Source: Candidatus Thorarchaeota archaeon
GTDB lineage: Archaea > Asgardarchaeota > Thorarchaeia > Thorarchaeales > Thorarchaeaceae
NCBI GenBank assembly: GCA_963726195.1
Contig: CAVSBO010000003.1
Span: forward strand, 800,001 to 864,000
Direction: 5' to 3'
DNA length: 64,000 nucleotides
Shown: one piece after another, positions 46,695 to 63,351 of the stretch
Layout of the letters: each line of letters opens with the position of its first letter
How positions within the stretch are numbered: position 1 is the first letter of the stretch
Translations under genes and position numbers: made by a program
The notes under the pieces: generated by a model
Database searches by the model: none
Told to the model about the DNA's origin: nothing
Seen by the model: only the letters and a program-made list of their open reading frames with translations

Positions 46695-47022
46695 GGCCGT
46701 TGCACAATCGGAGCCGGGTTCGTGTGTGGTTTATCAACCTTTTCAAAGTCCAATGCTTGATTATGTGCACAGTCGACTGCCTCTCATGTACAACGAACAT
46801 TCCGTAATGGAGGAATTGGTAACCCCTTGACCTTTCGCCCGTGGTCGCACGAATGAAATCAAGGGGTTCAATTCCTATGGTTGACTGTTTATGTCTCCTT
46901 CTGCCGTTCATTGTGAGTTGGACAAAGTTGGACACAGGAGTCTTCGTCCGCCCAGAAACGGCACTGGGCTCAAACTCCTTGAGGTCAGGTTCGTGTCGCT
47001 TCAACCTCAATGACTGAATTCC

Positions 47023-47508
47023 TCATTGAGGCTTATGTACTCCCACAGTTTCATGTCCATGTTTGTCCAGATTCTCGGCAGCTGCCGCTGAACCTAAATA
47101 GTCGGCGAGCATGATTCCTGTCGCCGTCAGGCTTGCCTGAAGCCCTCTGGTTGCCATGTCGCCTCCGACTAGCAGTCCCATGTCGATCAAAGCGCGAAGG
47201 TTCCATTTGACGGTACTATATGGAAGGCTGCTTCTGCGTGATACCTTATCGGCAAGGCCTGTGACTGTCAGTTTGTGAAACCTAAGCAACCAGGCAGTCA
47301 TCCTCAGTACCGTCTTTTGAGTCTCGCTCATCCGAACATCTGCCAGTGTCAGAAATGCTGAGGCAAGGCTCTCAAAAGAAGGCTTCTCAGTCGGTTTGGC
47401 TTCTAACTCAGGTGACTCACGGCCACCAGAGAACGAATCCACCTCGTCGGCGGATTTGGCACCCACCACTTGTCTGAGCGACCCGACATCGATGGGCATT
47501 AGGTACAC
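47023..47508 (-). CDS. Winged-HTH protein
   Basis: YSTVKWNLRAL.DMGLL..SLT.TG. Confidence 0.7.
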   Translation of the reverse strand: MYLMPIDVGSLRQVVGAKSADEVDSFSGGRESPELEAKPTEKPSFESLASAFLTLADVRMSETQKTVLRMTAWLLRFHKLTVTGLADKVSRRSSLPYSTVKWNLRALIDMGLLVGGDMATRGLQASLTATGIMLADYLGSAAAAENLDKHGHETVGVHKPQ

Positions 47509-54262: not shown

Positions 54263-54973
54263 GTGATGCACTCATCAGAATCGAATACCGACAGACGATT
54301 GAGAATCAGCCATGGTCGCACTTGCAATTGCCCTCCGAATCACATCAACTGCCTGTCGGCCAAAGAGTGGATTCAGCATCAGATTGCTGTATGGGAGTTC
54401 TACTACGAGGCACGGGATGTGAGGGACAAGAACATTCATCCAGCGACCTATCCCATAGCACTTCCGTCAAAGTGCATATCTCTGTTCACTCATAAGGGTG
54501 AACTGGTGCTGGACCCATTCGTCGGTGTGGGAACAACACTCGTCGCAGCCAGAGACCTCGCACGCAACGCAGTCGGGTTCGACCTAAAGGCGGACTATGT
54601 CGATTTCTCCAACAAGCGGCTGAGCTCTATGTCGGACAATGAGACAACGCAGATTGCATTGTGCGATGACGCTCATAACATACCTTCGTACCTTGAGGAG
54701 GAAACTGTTGCCGTCTGTGTGACATCTCCGCCCTATGCAAACCTCCTGAATCGCCGCAGACAGAACAAGAGTATGAGGGGCAATCTCAGGAAGGATGAAT
54801 ACTATCTCAAGGTACAGCAGTATTCTGACGATCCGAGGGATTTGGGCACCATGGATGCCGAGCCCTATGCGAAAACGCTAGGTGAAATCTTCGGTGGCAT
54901 TCTTCCTTTAATGCGACATAGAGCACACTGTCTTGTCAACATAACTGACTACTGGTGGGAAGACAGAAGGGTT
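54263..54973 (+). pseudogene. DNA methyltransferase (N4-C/N6-A, SPPY), 5' part, interrupted by IS607-like element
   Basis: HPATYP, VLDPFVGVGTT, TSPPY; frame runs into the element after YWWEDRRV. Confidence 0.92.
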
Positions 54974-54989
54974 GACAACAGCTGCCTAG

Positions 54990-55009
54990 AAGTTGGACAA
55001 TCTTGGACA
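54990..55009 (+). repeat. Left subterminal inverted repeat (2 x TTGGACA)
   Basis: AAGTTGGACAATCTTGGACA; 19/20 match to the reverse complement of 63088-63107. Confidence 0.9.
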
Positions 55010-55048
55010 CCACAGAACTGAAGAGCCGCAGCGCGACTGACACGATGC

Positions 55049-55675
55049 ATGTTGAGTGTGTCAGCAGCTGCGGTCAGGGTTGGGGTCTGTGCAAAAACCA
55101 TCCGACGGTGGGACGACAGGGGTCTTCTCCGATGTTTCAGGACCCGAGGTGGTCACAGACGAGTGCCTCAGTCAGAAATTGAACGAGTCATCTCAGAAAG
55201 GGAGCCGAGAGCAGATTCTCATATGACCTGCTCAAGAGCAACAATCGTGTACGCACGAGTATCGTCCCACGGGCAGAAGGCCTCAGGTGACCTTGACAGA
55301 CAGGTCGGCGAACTGCTCGCAAGTTCTGGCGAGGCATCTCCTCTTGTCCTCCCTGACGTCGGCTCCGGACTCAACATGAGGCGCAGGGGTCTATGGCAGC
55401 TGATACATGCTGCAGAGAGAGGACTCGTCAACCGGGTGATTGTCACTCACAGGGACAGACTGGCCCGCTTCGGGACCGAATTGATTGAGCATATCCTCTG
55501 CCTCCATGGCGTGGCCGTCAATGTCCTTCACGAGAACCGGGACATGACTCCTCAGGAAGAAGTGGTCGCCGATCTGATAGCACTAATTGCATCGTTCTCC
55601 GGACGTATCTATGGGCTTAGAGGTGCCATCCTCAGGGCCACAAGAGACCCGCTCAGACAAAGTTCTACTTCTTGA
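55049..55675 (+). CDS. tnpA: IS607-family serine transposase
   Basis: MerR-like HTH (GVCAKTIRRWD..TRGGHRR), YARVSS, GSGLN, DRLARFG, SFSGRIYG. Confidence 0.95.
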   Translation: MLSVSAAAVRVGVCAKTIRRWDDRGLLRCFRTRGGHRRVPQSEIERVISEREPRADSHMTCSRATIVYARVSSHGQKASGDLDRQVGELLASSGEASPLVLPDVGSGLNMRRRGLWQLIHAAERGLVNRVIVTHRDRLARFGTELIEHILCLHGVAVNVLHENRDMTPQEEVVADLIALIASFSGRIYGLRGAILRATRDPLRQSSTS

Positions 55676-55694
55676 AAAGGGACGCGGTCCTCCT

Positions 55695-55729
55695 CACGAT
55701 TTCTCTCCAGCCCCGGTGGAGAGACCGTG
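55695..55729. terminator. Hairpin between convergent tnpA and cargo genes
   Basis: CACG..TCTCTCCA-N7-TGGAGAGA..CGTG. Confidence 0.45.
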
Positions 55730-55784
55730 GGCTTCAAGCTGTTTCTCTACTGCGTTTTCGGTTTTTCCGTCTTGAAACCTTGCG

Positions 55785-58700
55785 TCACTCCTGATTTCCA
55801 GAAGCTGCACCCTGTTCATGAGCCTTCCGGACATCTCTAACCACATCAGGGACCTGCTTCCTCAATACCTCGCCAAGGTTCTCAATGCTCTGGAGTCGAG
55901 GCACTATTTCGAGCTCCACAGCCTCTCTTACTTCTCGCACCGCTTGTTGTACACCTTCGCCGAGCAGGATCTTCGGGTCATCATAGAGCATTCCCGATGC
56001 TGTACGAGTTCCATCGGTTTCTTCACTTACCCAATAGATTGCCTGATTCTGAGAATACAAGGTCACTGTCCACGTCGCTGGCTCCTCCGCGAACTCTTCA
56101 TCATGGCGACCAAGGTGTGTTCCAGCATGATTCAGCCAAGATGTCACTCGCCTGATGAACTGCTGTTTGTTCCTTATGGAGAAACCGCTCATCTCGCCCT
56201 CTCTCATGCTTTCCCTTAGCATGTCTACGACTTCCTCGGCATCCTCTTCACTCTCAATCTCTATTGTCCGTGACAGGAGCGGCTCACGTCGACCCTGTCC
56301 GATAGGAAAGACAGCATATGTACAGCTTGTTTCAGACAGGTCAGAGAGCCGTAGTTCACAAGGTGGGCTTCTTGCCGAGTACCCATGTCCCTTGAGTTCT
56401 GACAGGATTCGCTTCCTGAGCGCTCCGTACTCCTCTATTGCATTCATTGGGATCCGGGACGTGATGACATTCAATATCCTCTGGCACTCTTTCTCCGCGC
56501 CGTGGCCGTGCACCAACTCGATTGTCTGGGGAGTTTCCGTAAGGAATAGTCCTGTGATTGTCGACTGTGCTTGCCACTCGACATACTTCGGCTCTGTACA
56601 TGACAGGCCGACCAGCCAAGTCTGTTCTCTCACTCTCAGATAGGTTCCGGGCTCTAGAGGTTTCAATGACAGACCGTTCCTCCGAAGGAACATGCGGACG
56701 TACTGCTCCTCATGATACACCACGCTTTCATCTTCCCCAGAACCCTAGGCATGACGATGGCAAGTCTGTACAATCGCCCTGCATAGACTCTCCCTGGGGC
56801 AAGGAGCCCATTCACAGCTTCTCCGGTCATCGGTCTTCCAAGCTGTCGCTTTACTTGATTAGGACAGTCTGGCGGCAATGATATCCGCCAGCAGGCACCG
56901 TGATCGTACTCCTCACTATAGGGCGATGGGACAGATCGACTGGTCATGTTCAATGCTCACCTTGAGGGTCCCGGCCTCTTCGAAGAACCCGGACACTCGT
57001 GCAGGGAGTTCCTCCACCTCAGTTCGTGCAGCCTTGAAAGTGACATATGGTCCAATGAAATCCAGTTCTCCGTACACGATATCATCGAAGACACTCCAAG
57101 TGACGTACGTGCCCGAGTCTGTGTACATGGGTCCTGAGTTTGTCATAGGCCATCTGAGGAGTGAAATGAGTTCTGCCGTGTATTCCACGTTCACCTCTTG
57201 GAGGATTTCATCATCGCCATCAACGAACCTAACTTGGCAGACATTATTCACCATCTCAAGACGCACACTGACAGATGCTGGTCGCGTGACAGCCTCGATG
57301 TACCTACGCAGAGAGGCTGCCACACGTTGGTAGAACGACTCTGGTAGTTTCGTTCCTTGAGAAGCTTCAGTAACAGAGGGCTTAGTGAAGGACTGTCTTA
57401 TGGCACGGAGATGACGGACTGATGAGTGCCCCTGTTCCACCAGCTCGAGGACTCCCGAGTAGACTCTCTCATGATCGTCCGTTTCCATGCTCCATGTTTC
57501 CAGCCCCTGTTCAGTTGGTCTGAATTCCATTAGGACTTGTGAGGACCCGAGAATCTCGTCGGGTGTCTGTTGTGTTAGTACCTCTTGTTTGGTCTCACTC
57601 CAGAGGAGCCCCTCCTTGTCTGGAGACTTGCTCATGAAGCAACCAATGAGCATGCGGGCCTCATTCTCGGGGTCCTGCATGACAAGCCACCAGGGAAGAG
57701 CAGTCTCATCCTCCGGTAGAAACCTGATTCCAAACGTCAGTCCAGCCGTCGTTCTTTCACTGGAAGTGACAAGCTCCACTGTCTTTGGAGGAAATGCAAC
57801 AATGGTTCCTGGCCTTGTCTTCAACCTATTGGGTGAGCGGTAGAGCCGCTGGGAATTGATTCTACCCAGGGTCGTGGCCACGTACCCCTTGCCGGCCCCT
57901 GTCTCAGGGTGTCGGTAGCGCACAAGGTCAAGGACACTTGGAGTCTTGGCGGGAGGCCCATCAAGAACTCGTACTTCGAAAGTCAGGTCATCAGGGGCTC
58001 CTCTGAACTCATGCATGACTGCGTCGAACCGTTCCTTGATGCTCTCTTTCGAGTCATCTGAGAGCATCTTGTCAGGCCACAGGCAGACAAGCCAAGGGAG
58101 CAAGGTCATCGAGAGGAGCCTTATCCTGCTGCGAGTAGCCTTGTCGGGTACGATGTCGTCCAGCCCTCTCTCCTGCACAACGAGTCCCTTCCCTTGGTTC
58201 TTGAACCGCCTTGACCAGCCCCTCAGCGGAGGTACGAGCACGAGCTCAGTGTTCATGTCTTCGGGAGAATGGCGAACGACTACTCGGATATCATCATGCA
58301 TTGGTGAGTCCCCGATGACTGGCAACCCACATTTCTCAGGCTCGACAGCATTCCTTGGTGCCACAGGTAGGTTCCAGACAATCTCAGTGACGACCTCAGC
58401 AAGAGATGAATTGTCATAGAATGGGAGAAGGGCTCTGGTTGCATATGGGACGGACTTCTCGGAAGAGGGCGTAGGTGCATCGAACCACAGGACCGTCGTC
58501 TTCTTGTTGTCTGGAAGACTGTCCAGAAGCTGGTCCATTACGACCTGTAGTCTATCTCGGTGGCTCTCCGGAGTTGCATCTCGCAGGGTATCTGCCCCCG
58601 TCACGATGACTATTGTGTGGCTATTGATGCCCTTGTCCAGCTCGAACGATGGTATGTCTCCACCCTCATAGAGATATGATAGGATTTCGTCAAGGCGCCC

Positions 58701-60745
58701 TCTAACCTCTATGCCTTGAAAGAACTCTCGAATATGGTCTGGTTGCGTCTTCGCCACCTCGTCATCAGAGTATCCTCTTGGCCTTAGGCGAAGGCGTGCC
58801 TCTGCAAGGTGGGGCTCAGTGAACTGACTTGCAAGGTCAAACCAAACAAACCGTGCACCGAGGTGGCTCTCTTTCATCTCATAGAGCATCTGAAGCCCAT
58901 GATAGTTCCGTGCATTCCAGGCGGCGGACTGGCCTGCAGATGTCGGGGATCTCCCTACAAGATAGAGAATGAATCTTCGTCTGCTCTCTAGGCTCTGCTG
59001 GAACGGGTTGTAGAGTGGTTTCCACGGGACGTCAATAGCCTCTCCCCCCTGCTTCTCAGGAACGACTTGCTCATGAATGATCAGAGCGACTCTGCTATTG
59101 CTTCCTCCAATAGGCCTGATGGCCGTTCTTTGAACTGCTCCACTCATCTTCTTGATGGATTCATAGGCCTTTACCAATAGCCCTTCAATGGTTCGTCTGG
59201 CTTTATTGATATCAGTAATGGACTCGATGACTATCGTTCCTCTTGGCACGTACCTTGGCTCCAGCCCAGTGGCTTCATGGTATCTCTCAGCCAGCGCTTG
59301 TGCATAGACCTCTACTTGTCGCTGTGCAGATGCGCTGGGAGCGGATTTGACAATGGCGTCCCATTCTTTGTCCTCAAGAGTTCGGTCTTCAACGGGTAGC
59401 TCAGCAACAATACGGGGAGGAAGCCCTCTATGCAATCTGGACTCAGATGATTTCTCTTCAGCATCAATATGCCACTGATGCCCCATGCGGGTCTTGATCT
59501 CGCAGACGAATGCTGGTCTCCAGAGGATTTGTTTCCCGTCAGCTGTGATGATCCTCTCTAGAAGTAGAATGTCCACTTTTCCCAACCCGGACTCAGTCAC
59601 TATCGCCAGCTCTGACACAATAGCATACTCAGAGGCCCCTACATACCTATGTCCATTGAAGATGACGTCATTCAGATGCCATGGGCTGGGAAAGAGGTCT
59701 GATATCCTTCTGTGCATTATCGACCCCTTTAGTTTCGCTCGACTGGTTGCCTGCTGTCTGATGTATTCGACATCAGCTTTGGTTAGGCACGGTTCTTCAA
59801 GACCGGGCGTTCTAATGAAACCCCTCTGTGTCAGTCGTTCAAGCTCTTGAAGAGCAGGATGATTGCCATAGAATGTCAGTGCTTCGTCGAGCTGGCTCCG
59901 AAAGAAGTCGAAGGACGTATTGGATGCTCCATGTTCGAAGTCCCCCATCACGCTCTTGGCCGCTTGCATCGTGGGGTGATACCCGGACTCTGAAATCAGC
60001 TCTTTCACTCTTCGAAGAGCAGCGTTCGCCCCCTTTCTGAACTCTGGTCTCCCACACTTGTGCTCTGAGTAGATGTATTCAAGATAAGGTCGTACAAGAA
60101 GGAGAAGGAGATTGCAGTACTTGGTGGTCTCGCTCACAGGCACATCACAGATTGTGCAGTAGGTGGCAAGATACTCACCATGACTCCGAGCAGCATCACC
60201 AAAGTCCATAGAGGGAAGGTCAGGATGCGTGAGCATGACTCGTGGCCCGAAGGAGGACCCCTCGTATCCTGCGACTCTAAACTCTTTTCTGTGAGATCCC
60301 GCTCGCACTGTACGTGTTCCAAATTGAGTGGCATCAGGAAATGGGAACTCTCTCTGTGAGAACTCTCTGAGGGTAGCACCACATGCATTAAACCGCTGGT
60401 TCAGAGGACCCACAGTGCCATCAGGATTCTTCTGTCTGGAGACCTCAGTATGCCCAAATTCAGCAGCCTTCTCATAGAGCATCTTGAGCATGTTGTTCCT
60501 GATTTGAGGTTCAGCCTTGAGAACGGACGAGCAGTCAGGGGTACCTCGTTCCTTGCTCAGAAGATAGACGTGTCGAGTCTCTGCCAAATCTCGTAGGAAC
60601 TCCAGTAATGAGCACAGGTCAGTCTGTTCTTCATGCTACATTGGAGTTTCACCGTCGAGGCAAGCCCTGTCCGCAATGCAGCTGACATGACACGTTCTGG
60701 ATGAACGGGTAGTGGCCGAACAGGACGCCCTCTTGGCCTTGCCAT
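55785..60745 (-). CDS. Giant cargo protein (~1,650 aa if 3 frameshifts are repaired) with RecB/Cas4-like PD-(D/E)XK nuclease
   Basis: Overlapping ORFs 60557-60745, 56916-60587, 56663-56953, 55785-56723; GSIMH, KVDIL, CEIKT, QVEVY motifs. Confidence 0.7.
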
Positions 60746-60955
60746 CTCACTGATAGGATGGCATTGTGATATTTAAGTTCATTTTTTGGAAGTAACAGGC
60801 GCGGAACTCAGGTATCAAGAACTGGCTTGTTTCATAAAATCTGCCCCTTCTTCTTTATCAAACAAAAGGCTAACCTTTTACTCTGGTAATTATACGTCGC
60901 TTGCTTTTGTATGCCCTTATATCCCGACTTCAGCACCAATATGCGGTAGAGGCTG

Positions 60956-63087
60956 ATGAAGAGACAACCCCGGCGTCATCCCCGGGCGCCAAACCATGAC
61001 GTACAACAGGCAAGGCAACAAACAATGGATGATAATTATACGTCCTCTTCATCCACTTACCAAGCCGAGAAGTTCTCTCTCAACTCATATCCTAGAATTG
61101 TCGATCGAAAGGGAAAGAAAAGACGACCTGACCCTTCCTTCTCCGCAACACACAGACCCCCCGTCGAACAAGCACTAAGGGAGCTTGTCAGCGGCAACAA
61201 GTGCTCTGACATCGATATCCAGACACTTGAGCAGCACTTCGACAAGTATCTCAATGCAGTCAATCTCGTACTTGATGAGGTATACTCTGCTTCCGATCGC
61301 GCCCAGCGTGTCGGAGAGCGATTGCGCTCTTCAAGAGGACAAGGCTATGTAGTACTAAGAGAAGAGAACTTTCTAGAATGGAAACCGGACAACAGGTTCG
61401 GACAACTAGTCTATGAGCGAATGTATCGTAATGTCCTTGAGACCGCAGCCCGCATCGTGTTGGCTGACTACACGCGCAGGACACTGGTCAACTCACTAAT
61501 CACGATGCTGGCGAGTGATAGGCAGCAACTCAAGTCGCTCATGGCTCTCAAACGAATCCCTGCTCCTCTTGTCAGAAAGCTGCGAGCGACAGTCGGTGAA
61601 ACATCTGGTTCGTACTATCACTACGCGCTCACGGCATGCAAACAGCTTCGAAGAGCACTCGATGAACACCTCCTTGAGAGCTTCGGCGAGTCCACATCCA
61701 TCCGAAGACTAGCAAGGGACCGAGTTCGCGACCTTCTCGATACTCAATCGTCTGAATCAATCAAGGCCATGAATGCAACACTCAAGAAAGTGCAGAAATG
61801 GCACAAGACCGGTTTTCCATTCACTGCTCCCATTTTCAGACAAACCACCATGGACTTTACTGCATCTACTGAAAACACAACAGGACAAGGGTACTGGTTC
61901 ATGGAGGACTCCGAGCGACAGGACGAGGTTATCCTGTATATCAAGACCCCTCCCGGGGTCACAGGTCGTCAAGCCACGCCTGATTCACCGTACAAGAGCC
62001 AAACTCTTCGATTCAGGTTCCTCGACTGGTTGCCCCGAAAGGCAGCCCGTGCTCACAAAAAGGCAGAGGAGTCGAAAGCTCACGGTCATTTCAGCAGGGC
62101 CGTGGAGTCTGAATATCGTGCTGCACGCTTTGACGATATGACCCAACAGCTGAGGAACAATGTCAGACTGCAGTGCCTGAATAGACAACTTTCTTCTCTG
62201 AAGTCCAGAAAGGACATCGATGGAGAGAGGGTCAATGAACTGAAAGCCCAGATAACGGCGCTCAGACAGACCAGAAGGTGTGCCCCGCCCATCCTCAGTC
62301 TGCGAGGACACACTGCCACACTCATTATTCCCTTCCTATGCCCTGACAAACAGATGCTGAAACGAGTGCTGCCAACAGTCCCAAGGACAGGCAGGGCAGG
62401 AGTCGACCGGGGTCTGAGATATCCGGTGGTCCTCTCAGTAAAGAACGGTGCAAACAGTATGATGAAACAAAGATAGGAAGGCCAGAGTCATTCGAGAGAC
62501 GCGAGAGGCTCAGACAACGTACACGAGTCTTGATGTCACAGATCGTGCGACGACGGAACAACTGGGACAGGAAACGACCGATGCTGTCACCTCCGTCCTC
62601 TATTCTGAAACGGGAGAGAGAGCTGGAGGCAGTGTGGGCCAAGGTCCGACGCATCGACCGAGAAATCTCCCATCAGCTGGCCGCTGAGACCGTCTGGTTC
62701 TGTGAGCATCGTGGTGTCAAGACTGTCTACTTCGAAGACCTACGGTACTTCCAACCACAGGGCGGGTTCAAAACTCATTCATGGGAGCTGTCAACCAACC
62801 TCTGGGGGAAAATCATTGAAGGGGTCCGATATCGCAGACAGGCCCTAGGTCACAAGTACGGTGGAGTATGGACTGTGAACCCAGCCATGACATCCCAGAG
62901 ATGTAGTACCTGTGGTGAGAAAGGAGTGCGCGTCAGAGACAGTGATTCCACAGAGGAGGAGCACGGTGGGGAGTTCTTCTACTGCCCGAGCTGTGACCTC
63001 AAACTGCACGCAGACGTGAACGCGGCCAGAAACATCCTTATGATTCAACAACCCAAGCCCAGTGCCGTTTCTGGGCGGACTGCTTGA
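60956..63087 (+). CDS. Long TnpB/Cas12-like RuvC nuclease (~710 aa), frameshift ~62450
   Basis: RuvC-I GVDRG in ORF 60956-62476; shifted frame QYDETKIGRPES.. joins ORF 62530-63087 with FEDL, TSQRCSTC, CPSC, ADVNAARNI. Confidence 0.88.
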
Positions 63088-63107
63088 TGTCCAAGTTTGT
63101 CCAACTT
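63088..63107 (-). repeat. Right subterminal inverted repeat (2 x TGTCCAA)
   Basis: TGTCCAAGTTTGTCCAACTT immediately after the tnpB-like stop codon. Confidence 0.9.
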
Positions 63108-63117
63108 ACAATGAACG

Positions 63118-63294
63118 GTTCCTGCTCACATGTATGTCATCAATGCATTGCAGGATGTAGGGTACGAACTCCGTAACATAATCATCTGGGACAGGCAGAA
63201 CATAGTGAACCGTGCTGGCATCTTCGGGTGGCCCAACAATTACATCACTCTCAGCACGACCTTCGAGTACATTGTTGATTTCTGGCGTCCATGA
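63118..63294 (+). pseudogene. DNA methyltransferase, 3' part (not in the ORF track)
   Basis: VPAHMYVINALQDVGYELRNIIIWDRQNIVNRAGIFGWPNNYITLSTTFEYIVDFWRP*; IIW and EYI motifs typical of amino-MTases. Confidence 0.9.
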
Positions 63295-63351
63295 TGAGCC
63301 TCGTCAGTGACAAGCCACAGGTCACATGATTTGATTGACATGACAGGATTC

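Follow-up and report, generated by a model that had tools for sequence, protein, structure and literature searches.

An 8.1-kb mobile element of a Thorarchaeota archaeon with IS607-type ends and a Cas1-fold fusion gene between tnpA and tnpB

Introduction

Loci of Asgard archaea in which a diverged Cas1 (aCas1) is encoded beside TnpB, known as Cas1H-Asgard-1 and Cas1H-Asgard-2, have been reported by Altae-Tran et al. 2023 (PMC10691335), with reference to Makarova et al. 2020. The main text of that paper proposes aCas1 as the transposase of the aCas1-TnpB loci, and describes, downstream of tnpB, a variable stretch and then GTTCACTCA; it makes no mention of three-gene elements comprising tnpA, aCas1 and tnpB. 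Transposons of the IS607 family are inserted at a GG core without target duplication, and possess subterminal motifs that are inverted and lie at unequal distances from the ends (PMC6188088); the TAM of CboIStron is TGGG (bioRxiv 10.1101/2023.11.20.567912). Asgard archaea also harbour the Aloposons of Heimdallarchaeum, which are transposons that carry giant genes and occupy tRNA sites, and for which the main text of the original description (PMC8813620) mentions neither Cas1 nor IS607.

Here we describe an 8.1-kb element within a 64-kb window, that is, the whole stretch of DNA that was analysed, 64,000 nucleotides in length, by whose positions all features are given below. The element is a genuine mobile unit in an Asgard archaeon (Thorarchaeota). 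A sequence-only reading of the window had suggested that it might represent an undescribed archaeal family, which is too strong because the pairing of aCas1 and TnpB in Asgard archaea is already set out in the main text of PMC10691335. That association and the chemistry of IS607 are both known; new relative to the same main text are the placement of the module on an IS607 chassis with exact ends, its empty sites, its mini-copies and the swapping of partners. A further addition is that TnpA-bearing copies occupy GG sites away from tRNA genes, and TnpA-less copies lie beside tRNA and 16S genes. Three building blocks of CRISPR evolution, namely an integrase of the Cas1 type, a putative nuclease of the Cas4 type and a TnpB resembling Cas12, meet in this one precisely mapped transposon.

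Like the published aCas1-TnpB loci, the element has a diverged Cas1 beside TnpB and an Asgard host. It differs from them in its TnpB of ~710 aa, its IS607 GG-core ends and its serine TnpA; moreover, GTTCACTCA is absent from this element and the other loci of its type (class A, defined below) but present in a second type (class B), and the motif perhaps marks just one of the two Cas1H-Asgard groups that have been published. With the IS607 family (IS607, IS1535, ISC1926 and CboIStron) it shares an HTH-serine TnpA, a GG core, the lack of target duplication, a (G)GG target in a TGGG-like context that resembles the CboIStron TAM, subterminal inverted motifs, and a TnpB at the right end with a predicted omegaRNA. 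It measures 8.1 kb, however, rather than ~2 kb, and its tnpA and tnpB are split by a 5-kb Cas1 fusion on the opposite strand. Hence, its mode of operation would be that of IS607, but the third gene breaks the compact two-ORF layout and the element does not count as a canonical IS607 insertion sequence.

Three further assignments were considered and rejected. Casposons also contain a Cas1-fold integrase in a mobile element, and related TnpA-less loci share their tRNA association, but the 8.1-kb element has three genes only and lacks PolB, terminal inverted repeats and target duplication. It is not an Aloposon, the features of which, according to the main text of PMC8813620, include tandem genes of 3,000–6,000 aa and a MinD/ParA gene. 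Finally, it is not a type V CRISPR-Cas locus; positions 54800–63300 contain no repeat array, and there are three genes only inside the ends, with no cas2.

Results

Insertion site and element ends

The element splits a host N6/N4 DNA methyltransferase gene (Pfam N6_N4_Mtase) at a GG core, leaving the 5' part at 54263–54971 and the 3' part at 63119–63294, both on the forward strand. The junctions proposed by the sequence-only reading are where it placed them, both 15-mers being found (at 54965 on the left and 63112 on the right), and excision of 8,147 bp restores the complete 294-aa methyltransferase ORF that it had anticipated. With no gap at the joint, the rejoined ORF aligns to a paralog from contig C7 and also to orthologs in relatives. 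Among these is a continuous, syntenic ortholog in the sister species G002 that shows exactly the same empty site, so that the empty allele suggested for a search does exist and the methyltransferase insertion was made without duplication. Two mini-copy sites (see below) are likewise exactly empty in G002, and none of the three exact empty sites carries a target duplication. The left junction is bridged by an independent short-read contig of another study (run X1, record 4, 54882–55085, 3 differences), and no piece among those listed from that study's contigs bridges the right junction. A circle junction joining the right end to the left end was not found among the assembled contigs compared.

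In 40 left junctions the pattern is (A)G-GG-T and in 59 right junctions AAC-GG-T/C, with random sequence beyond. The conserved core is GG and not the four-base GGTT shown at both junctions by the earlier reading, of which the fourth base is chance; that reading's description of IS607-type ends without target duplication agrees with both the junction counts and the three empty sites. The left end (54970–55012, forward strand) comprises the GG core at 54970–54971, directly after a host G, two TTGGACA motifs and an inverted repeat arm, and is common to mini-copies and relatives. The arms of this 23-bp subterminal inverted repeat (54990–55012 and 63085–63107) are 91% complementary and lie at unequal distances from the ends.

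The right end (63057–63119, forward strand) combines the second arm and the GG core at 63117–63118 with the 3' part of a putative omegaRNA scaffold, in which the loop of a hairpin at 63057–63076 is predicted to pair with 63113–63119 as a pseudoknot. In 28 sequences about 93.5–95% of the pseudoknot cells are paired, with 34 two-sided changes, which is far above slid controls. An Rfam search of the right end returned no match and single-sequence folding was no better than shuffles; covariation is the one line of evidence that points to a right-end RNA, and the structure fits an omegaRNA with the host flank as guide. The guide predicted from IS607 TnpB biology (63119–63134, forward strand) matches the empty site only, there being no other site of GGG plus guide in the genome.

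The same genome contains about 17 mini-copies, non-coding and ~190 bp long, with both ends as in the 8.1-kb element, one of which lies elsewhere in the window (46904–47092, reverse strand), as well as tnpA-less aCas1-tnpB copies (contigs C8 and C16) and tnpB remnants. The sister species G001 and G003 have many mini-copies, at other sites.

Gene content

The first gene, tnpA (55049–55675, forward strand), encodes an IS607 serine recombinase with an N-terminal HTH and an intact catalytic RVSS motif; it scores 174 bits on the IS607 transposase model NF033518 (cut-off 110), and no other full tnpA of the IS607 type was found in this assembly, which is 89% complete. The aCas1 fusion follows on the reverse strand (55785–60745) and is ~1,650 aa long in relatives. 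A large TnpB (60956–63087, forward strand), ~710–715 aa in relatives, retains the RuvC D/E/D residues and the Zn finger, and reaches no more than 17 bits against the IS607_TnpB model. Between the divergent aCas1 and tnpB genes lies an AT-richer intergenic region (60746–60955) that is likely to be both a promoter region and a swap point.

This arrangement is the one given by the sequence-only reading, which made no mention of frameshifts: neither the middle gene nor tnpB is open in the assembly, owing to frameshifts near 60590, 56917 and 56712 in aCas1 and near 62457 in tnpB. In ordinary host genes of the assembly, 9 frameshifts were counted over 49 kb (~0.18 per kb), from which about 1.4 would be expected in the element against the four seen (P about 0.06), and two of the four are missing from related contigs of 93–97% identity. 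Given the host-gene rate and these two absences, at least some of the frameshifts are likely to be assembly errors, and this copy is either an intact one that was mis-assembled or one that was broken recently. Indel errors occur in the assembly, as does a long poly-T artefact. A sibling of ~94% identity in the contigs of the other study covers pieces of tnpA, aCas1 and tnpB.

The product of the middle gene, as interpreted from its predicted fold, its motifs and its relatives, comprises a Cas1 catalytic domain, PD-(D/E)xK motifs and a Rad51/KaiC-like fold in that order, followed by a C-terminal half (~800 residues) with no assignment. Pfam, NCBIfam, PDB sequence and Atlas searches produced no match to this protein, and Cas1 was seen by folding only. 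When the N-terminal 851 aa are modelled with AlphaFold (pLDDT 89), residues 1–221 match Cas1 catalytic domains (best Z 13.3–13.8, rmsd 3.5–3.7, ~175 residues), with many Cas1 and casposase chains among the fold matches listed; the N-terminal beta domain of Cas1 is absent. Residues E68, H163 and D173 do not vary in any of the 57 sequences and were assigned to the Cas1 E/H/D triad by motif order, not superposition. A PD-(D/E)xK nuclease domain is suggested by motifs only, namely H, E, D, (E/D)xK and QxxxY, which are conserved (D388, K414, Q473 and Y477 are invariant in 57 sequences); among the fold matches listed for the multi-domain model, the nuclease part is absent. Residues 584–836 match Rad51/RadA/KaiC folds (Z 11–12), and there is no canonical Walker A motif, its lysine occurring in only 12 of 57 sequences. 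A model of the C-terminal ~790 aa (pLDDT 80) gave no fold match with a Z greater than 6.2, which in itself is no demonstration of a new fold. The label of 'giant nuclease cargo' first applied to this gene is therefore apt for the nuclease motifs but incomplete, since the protein is chiefly a fusion of a Cas1-fold integrase (Z 13–14). Judged by codon substitution, aCas1 is under purifying selection; dN/dS is 0.12–0.20 for the Cas1 domain (class A pairs) and about 0.1–0.3 across the three N-terminal domains.

Distribution and genomic context

Within the host's family 25 of 36 genomes have homologs of aCas1, compared with 0 of 24 outside it, and the named matches are Ca. Thorarchaeota. The order of tnpA, aCas1 (opposite strand) and tnpB recurs with an intact tnpA at six other Thorarchaeota loci (L033, L069, L073, L080, L148 and L150) and with a broken tnpA at five (L074, L151–L153 and L163), confirming the suspicion of a recurrent family with one gene order. 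Protein identity among the three-gene loci is 46–81% for tnpA, 24–71% for aCas1 and 35–73% for TnpB. The three genes also travel as one mobile unit, as had been supposed, for 24 of 27 family tnpA matches adjoin either aCas1 (16) or a class A tnpB piece (8). The two-gene tnpA cases taken in full are all truncated, and these observations together identify the three-gene form as the full element. In several loci tnpA and aCas1 overlap or abut, which leaves no room for internal ends; none is present, and given the recurrence of the order a nested insertion was rejected, the cargo having no ends of its own.

In every locus with enough flank, aCas1 and a TnpB are arranged head-to-head, and the TnpB belongs to one of two types. 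Class A, which includes the 8.1-kb element, has a TnpB of ~710–715 aa and IS607 right ends, and class B has a TnpB of ~560 aa and carries the downstream motif of Altae-Tran et al. On the aCas1 tree, the class label needs at least six changes, a single class A clade is rejected (p-AU 2e-56), and the aCas1 of the 8.1-kb element is sister to a class B aCas1. The label changes and the rejected clade indicate that aCas1 is exchanged between the two TnpB types, swapping chassis while still paired with a TnpB.

A tRNA or 16S gene lies within 500 bp of 7 of the 11 class A modules in which no left end was detected and of 14 of the 33 class B modules, counts that are inflated by kinship and overstate independence because the tRNA-linked loci are partly kin; the background near ordinary gene ends is about 3%. 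By contrast, none of 13 scanned loci bearing a left end or tnpA has such a gene within that distance. At four loci (L038, L077, L088 and L090), the best match of the predicted guide is to the 5' end of the neighbouring antisense tRNA, 118–151 bp off and immediately preceded by GGG (0–2 of 60 in shuffles). Duplications of the tRNA end, ~45 bp long, occur in the class B loci L047, L048 and L067, and in some class B loci several short 16S-like segments lie behind the scaffold.

Discussion

The boundaries, the scarless insertion at (A)GGGT, the recurring three-gene order, the conserved catalytic motifs and the covarying right-end RNA structure are directly supported by the data. We consider it probable that the locus as a whole is explained by an IS607-type transposon of which the Asgard aCas1-TnpB module is a fixed part. 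By analogy with IS607 biology, TnpA would excise and integrate the unit through the GG core, and would move the mini-copies and tnpA-less copies in trans, while TnpB with the right-end omegaRNA would cut the empty donor site and the element would be copied back by repair. The TAM of TnpB is probably (A)GGG. We infer that the methyltransferase insertion was made by TnpA and not by aCas1.

For aCas1 itself we tentatively favour an active integrase that would offer a second, TnpA-independent route, placing the module beside tRNA and rRNA genes and probably steered by TnpB. The contrast in tRNA/16S association, the tRNA-matching guides and the ~45-bp duplications favour such a TnpB-associated integrase, which we rank above a role in repair and, lower still, guide acquisition. 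As a repair or homing helper, aCas1 would use its nuclease and Rad51-like domains to process TnpB cuts and promote copy-back into the empty site; the invariant nuclease motifs, the Rad51/RadA-like fold (Z 11–12), the presence in element L149 of an additional RadA-like gene whose Walker A is intact and the strict head-to-head pairing with tnpB are all in keeping with this, but the invariant Cas1 E/H/D residues, the tRNA clustering and the duplications at the three class B loci are left unexplained, and we regard it as somewhat unlikely. The integrase reading has a bolder form, in which aCas1-TnpB is an RNA-guided, CAST-like Cas1 integrase that homes by its guide to tRNA and rRNA genes, the IS607 recombinase being a second route to GG sites. 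It is to this possibility that the contrast between TnpA-bearing copies at GG and TnpA-less copies at tRNA/16S genes with matching guides points, and as a complete account we think it unlikely.

More doubtful is a primitive adaptation module that captures new guides for TnpB. The fusion of Cas1 with a Cas4-like nuclease does adjoin an ancestor of Cas12, short 16S-like segments follow the scaffold in some class B loci, and class A guides near tRNA genes match the tRNA 5' end; against this, no repeat array was found in or near the 8.1-kb element, cas2 was not seen, and the guide of the element is plain host flank, as in any IS607.

That aCas1 and not TnpA is the transposase of the 8.1-kb element, with tnpA an accidental neighbour, would extend the proposal made for aCas1-TnpB loci in the main text of PMC10691335, and seems to us very unlikely. 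Most aCas1-TnpB modules do lack tnpA, and L152 repeats ~13 bp of the start of the left end after its right end; nevertheless, both ends have a GG core and the form usual for IS607, gene-free mini-copies use identical ends, and tnpA genes of the family are almost always within such elements. Integration by a casposase-type Cas1 creates target duplications, and the three empty-site comparisons show none. The published claim becomes directly testable, and scarless insertion at GG speaks against it for class A. Least probable of all, by far, is a passive passenger, nested insertion or assembly chimera, for which the frameshifts of this copy and the indel errors and poly-T artefact of the assembly might be cited, but which conflicts with recurrence in at least seven other genomes at 24–71% protein identity, with purifying selection, with the absence of internal ends and with the ~94% identical sibling from an independent study.

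Intact relatives, for example L033 and L148, represent ready constructs, in which the large TnpB appears active from its sequence and the TAM is predictable.

Cargo and gene order within IS607-type ends

The ends of the window element can enclose other cargo, since a 4.2-kb unit in the same genome, on contig C8 (L187; G000:C8:55322-59494), is bounded by the same left and right ends as the element and holds between them an alpha/beta-hydrolase gene and a BNR-repeat gene, its tnpB being reduced to a stub. In the element at locus L149 (1970-11320), tnpA is intact, aCas1 is inverted and lies on the tnpA strand, a 245-aa ORF precedes tnpB, and there is an additional RadA/Rad51-like gene with an intact Walker A motif. 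Elsewhere, the position downstream of aCas1 where tnpA would sit is occupied by an ORF of 174-209 aa, both in class A (L011, L039) and in class B (L040, L044, L045); a Pfam search with the L039 copy returned no match. At L152 (680-700 and 9290-9305) the initial ~13 bases of the left end recur directly past the right end, representing a short duplication, a tandem remnant or a conversion. Weaker instances of this repeat occur at L085 and L086.

Class B copies in the genome of the window

Contig C16 of G000 carries a class B aCas1-TnpB module beside tRNA-Asp (217300-223400), in which aCas1 is frameshifted, and a separate class B 3' remnant (201700-202100). Two assembly flaws were recognized in this genome, a poly-T run of ~770 nt (C8:114721-115503) and a gene for an RNA polymerase subunit that seems to be frameshifted (C16:~214950).

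Modules adjoining tRNA and 16S rRNA genes

For six class A modules in which the left end was not found (L038, L071, L077, L085, L088, L090), the guide is similar to the 5' end of a neighbouring antisense tRNA-Lys or tRNA-Arg gene; the tRNA gene at L088 contains an intron. The tRNA-Gly 3' end is copied (~45 bp) on either side of three class B modules (L047, L048, L067), and these copies resemble target duplications. Four further class B modules (L051, L053, L056, L059) adjoin the 16S rRNA 3' end, and several short 16S-like segments lie behind the scaffold in this group. Some of the 16S copies at these loci seem to contain small insertions.
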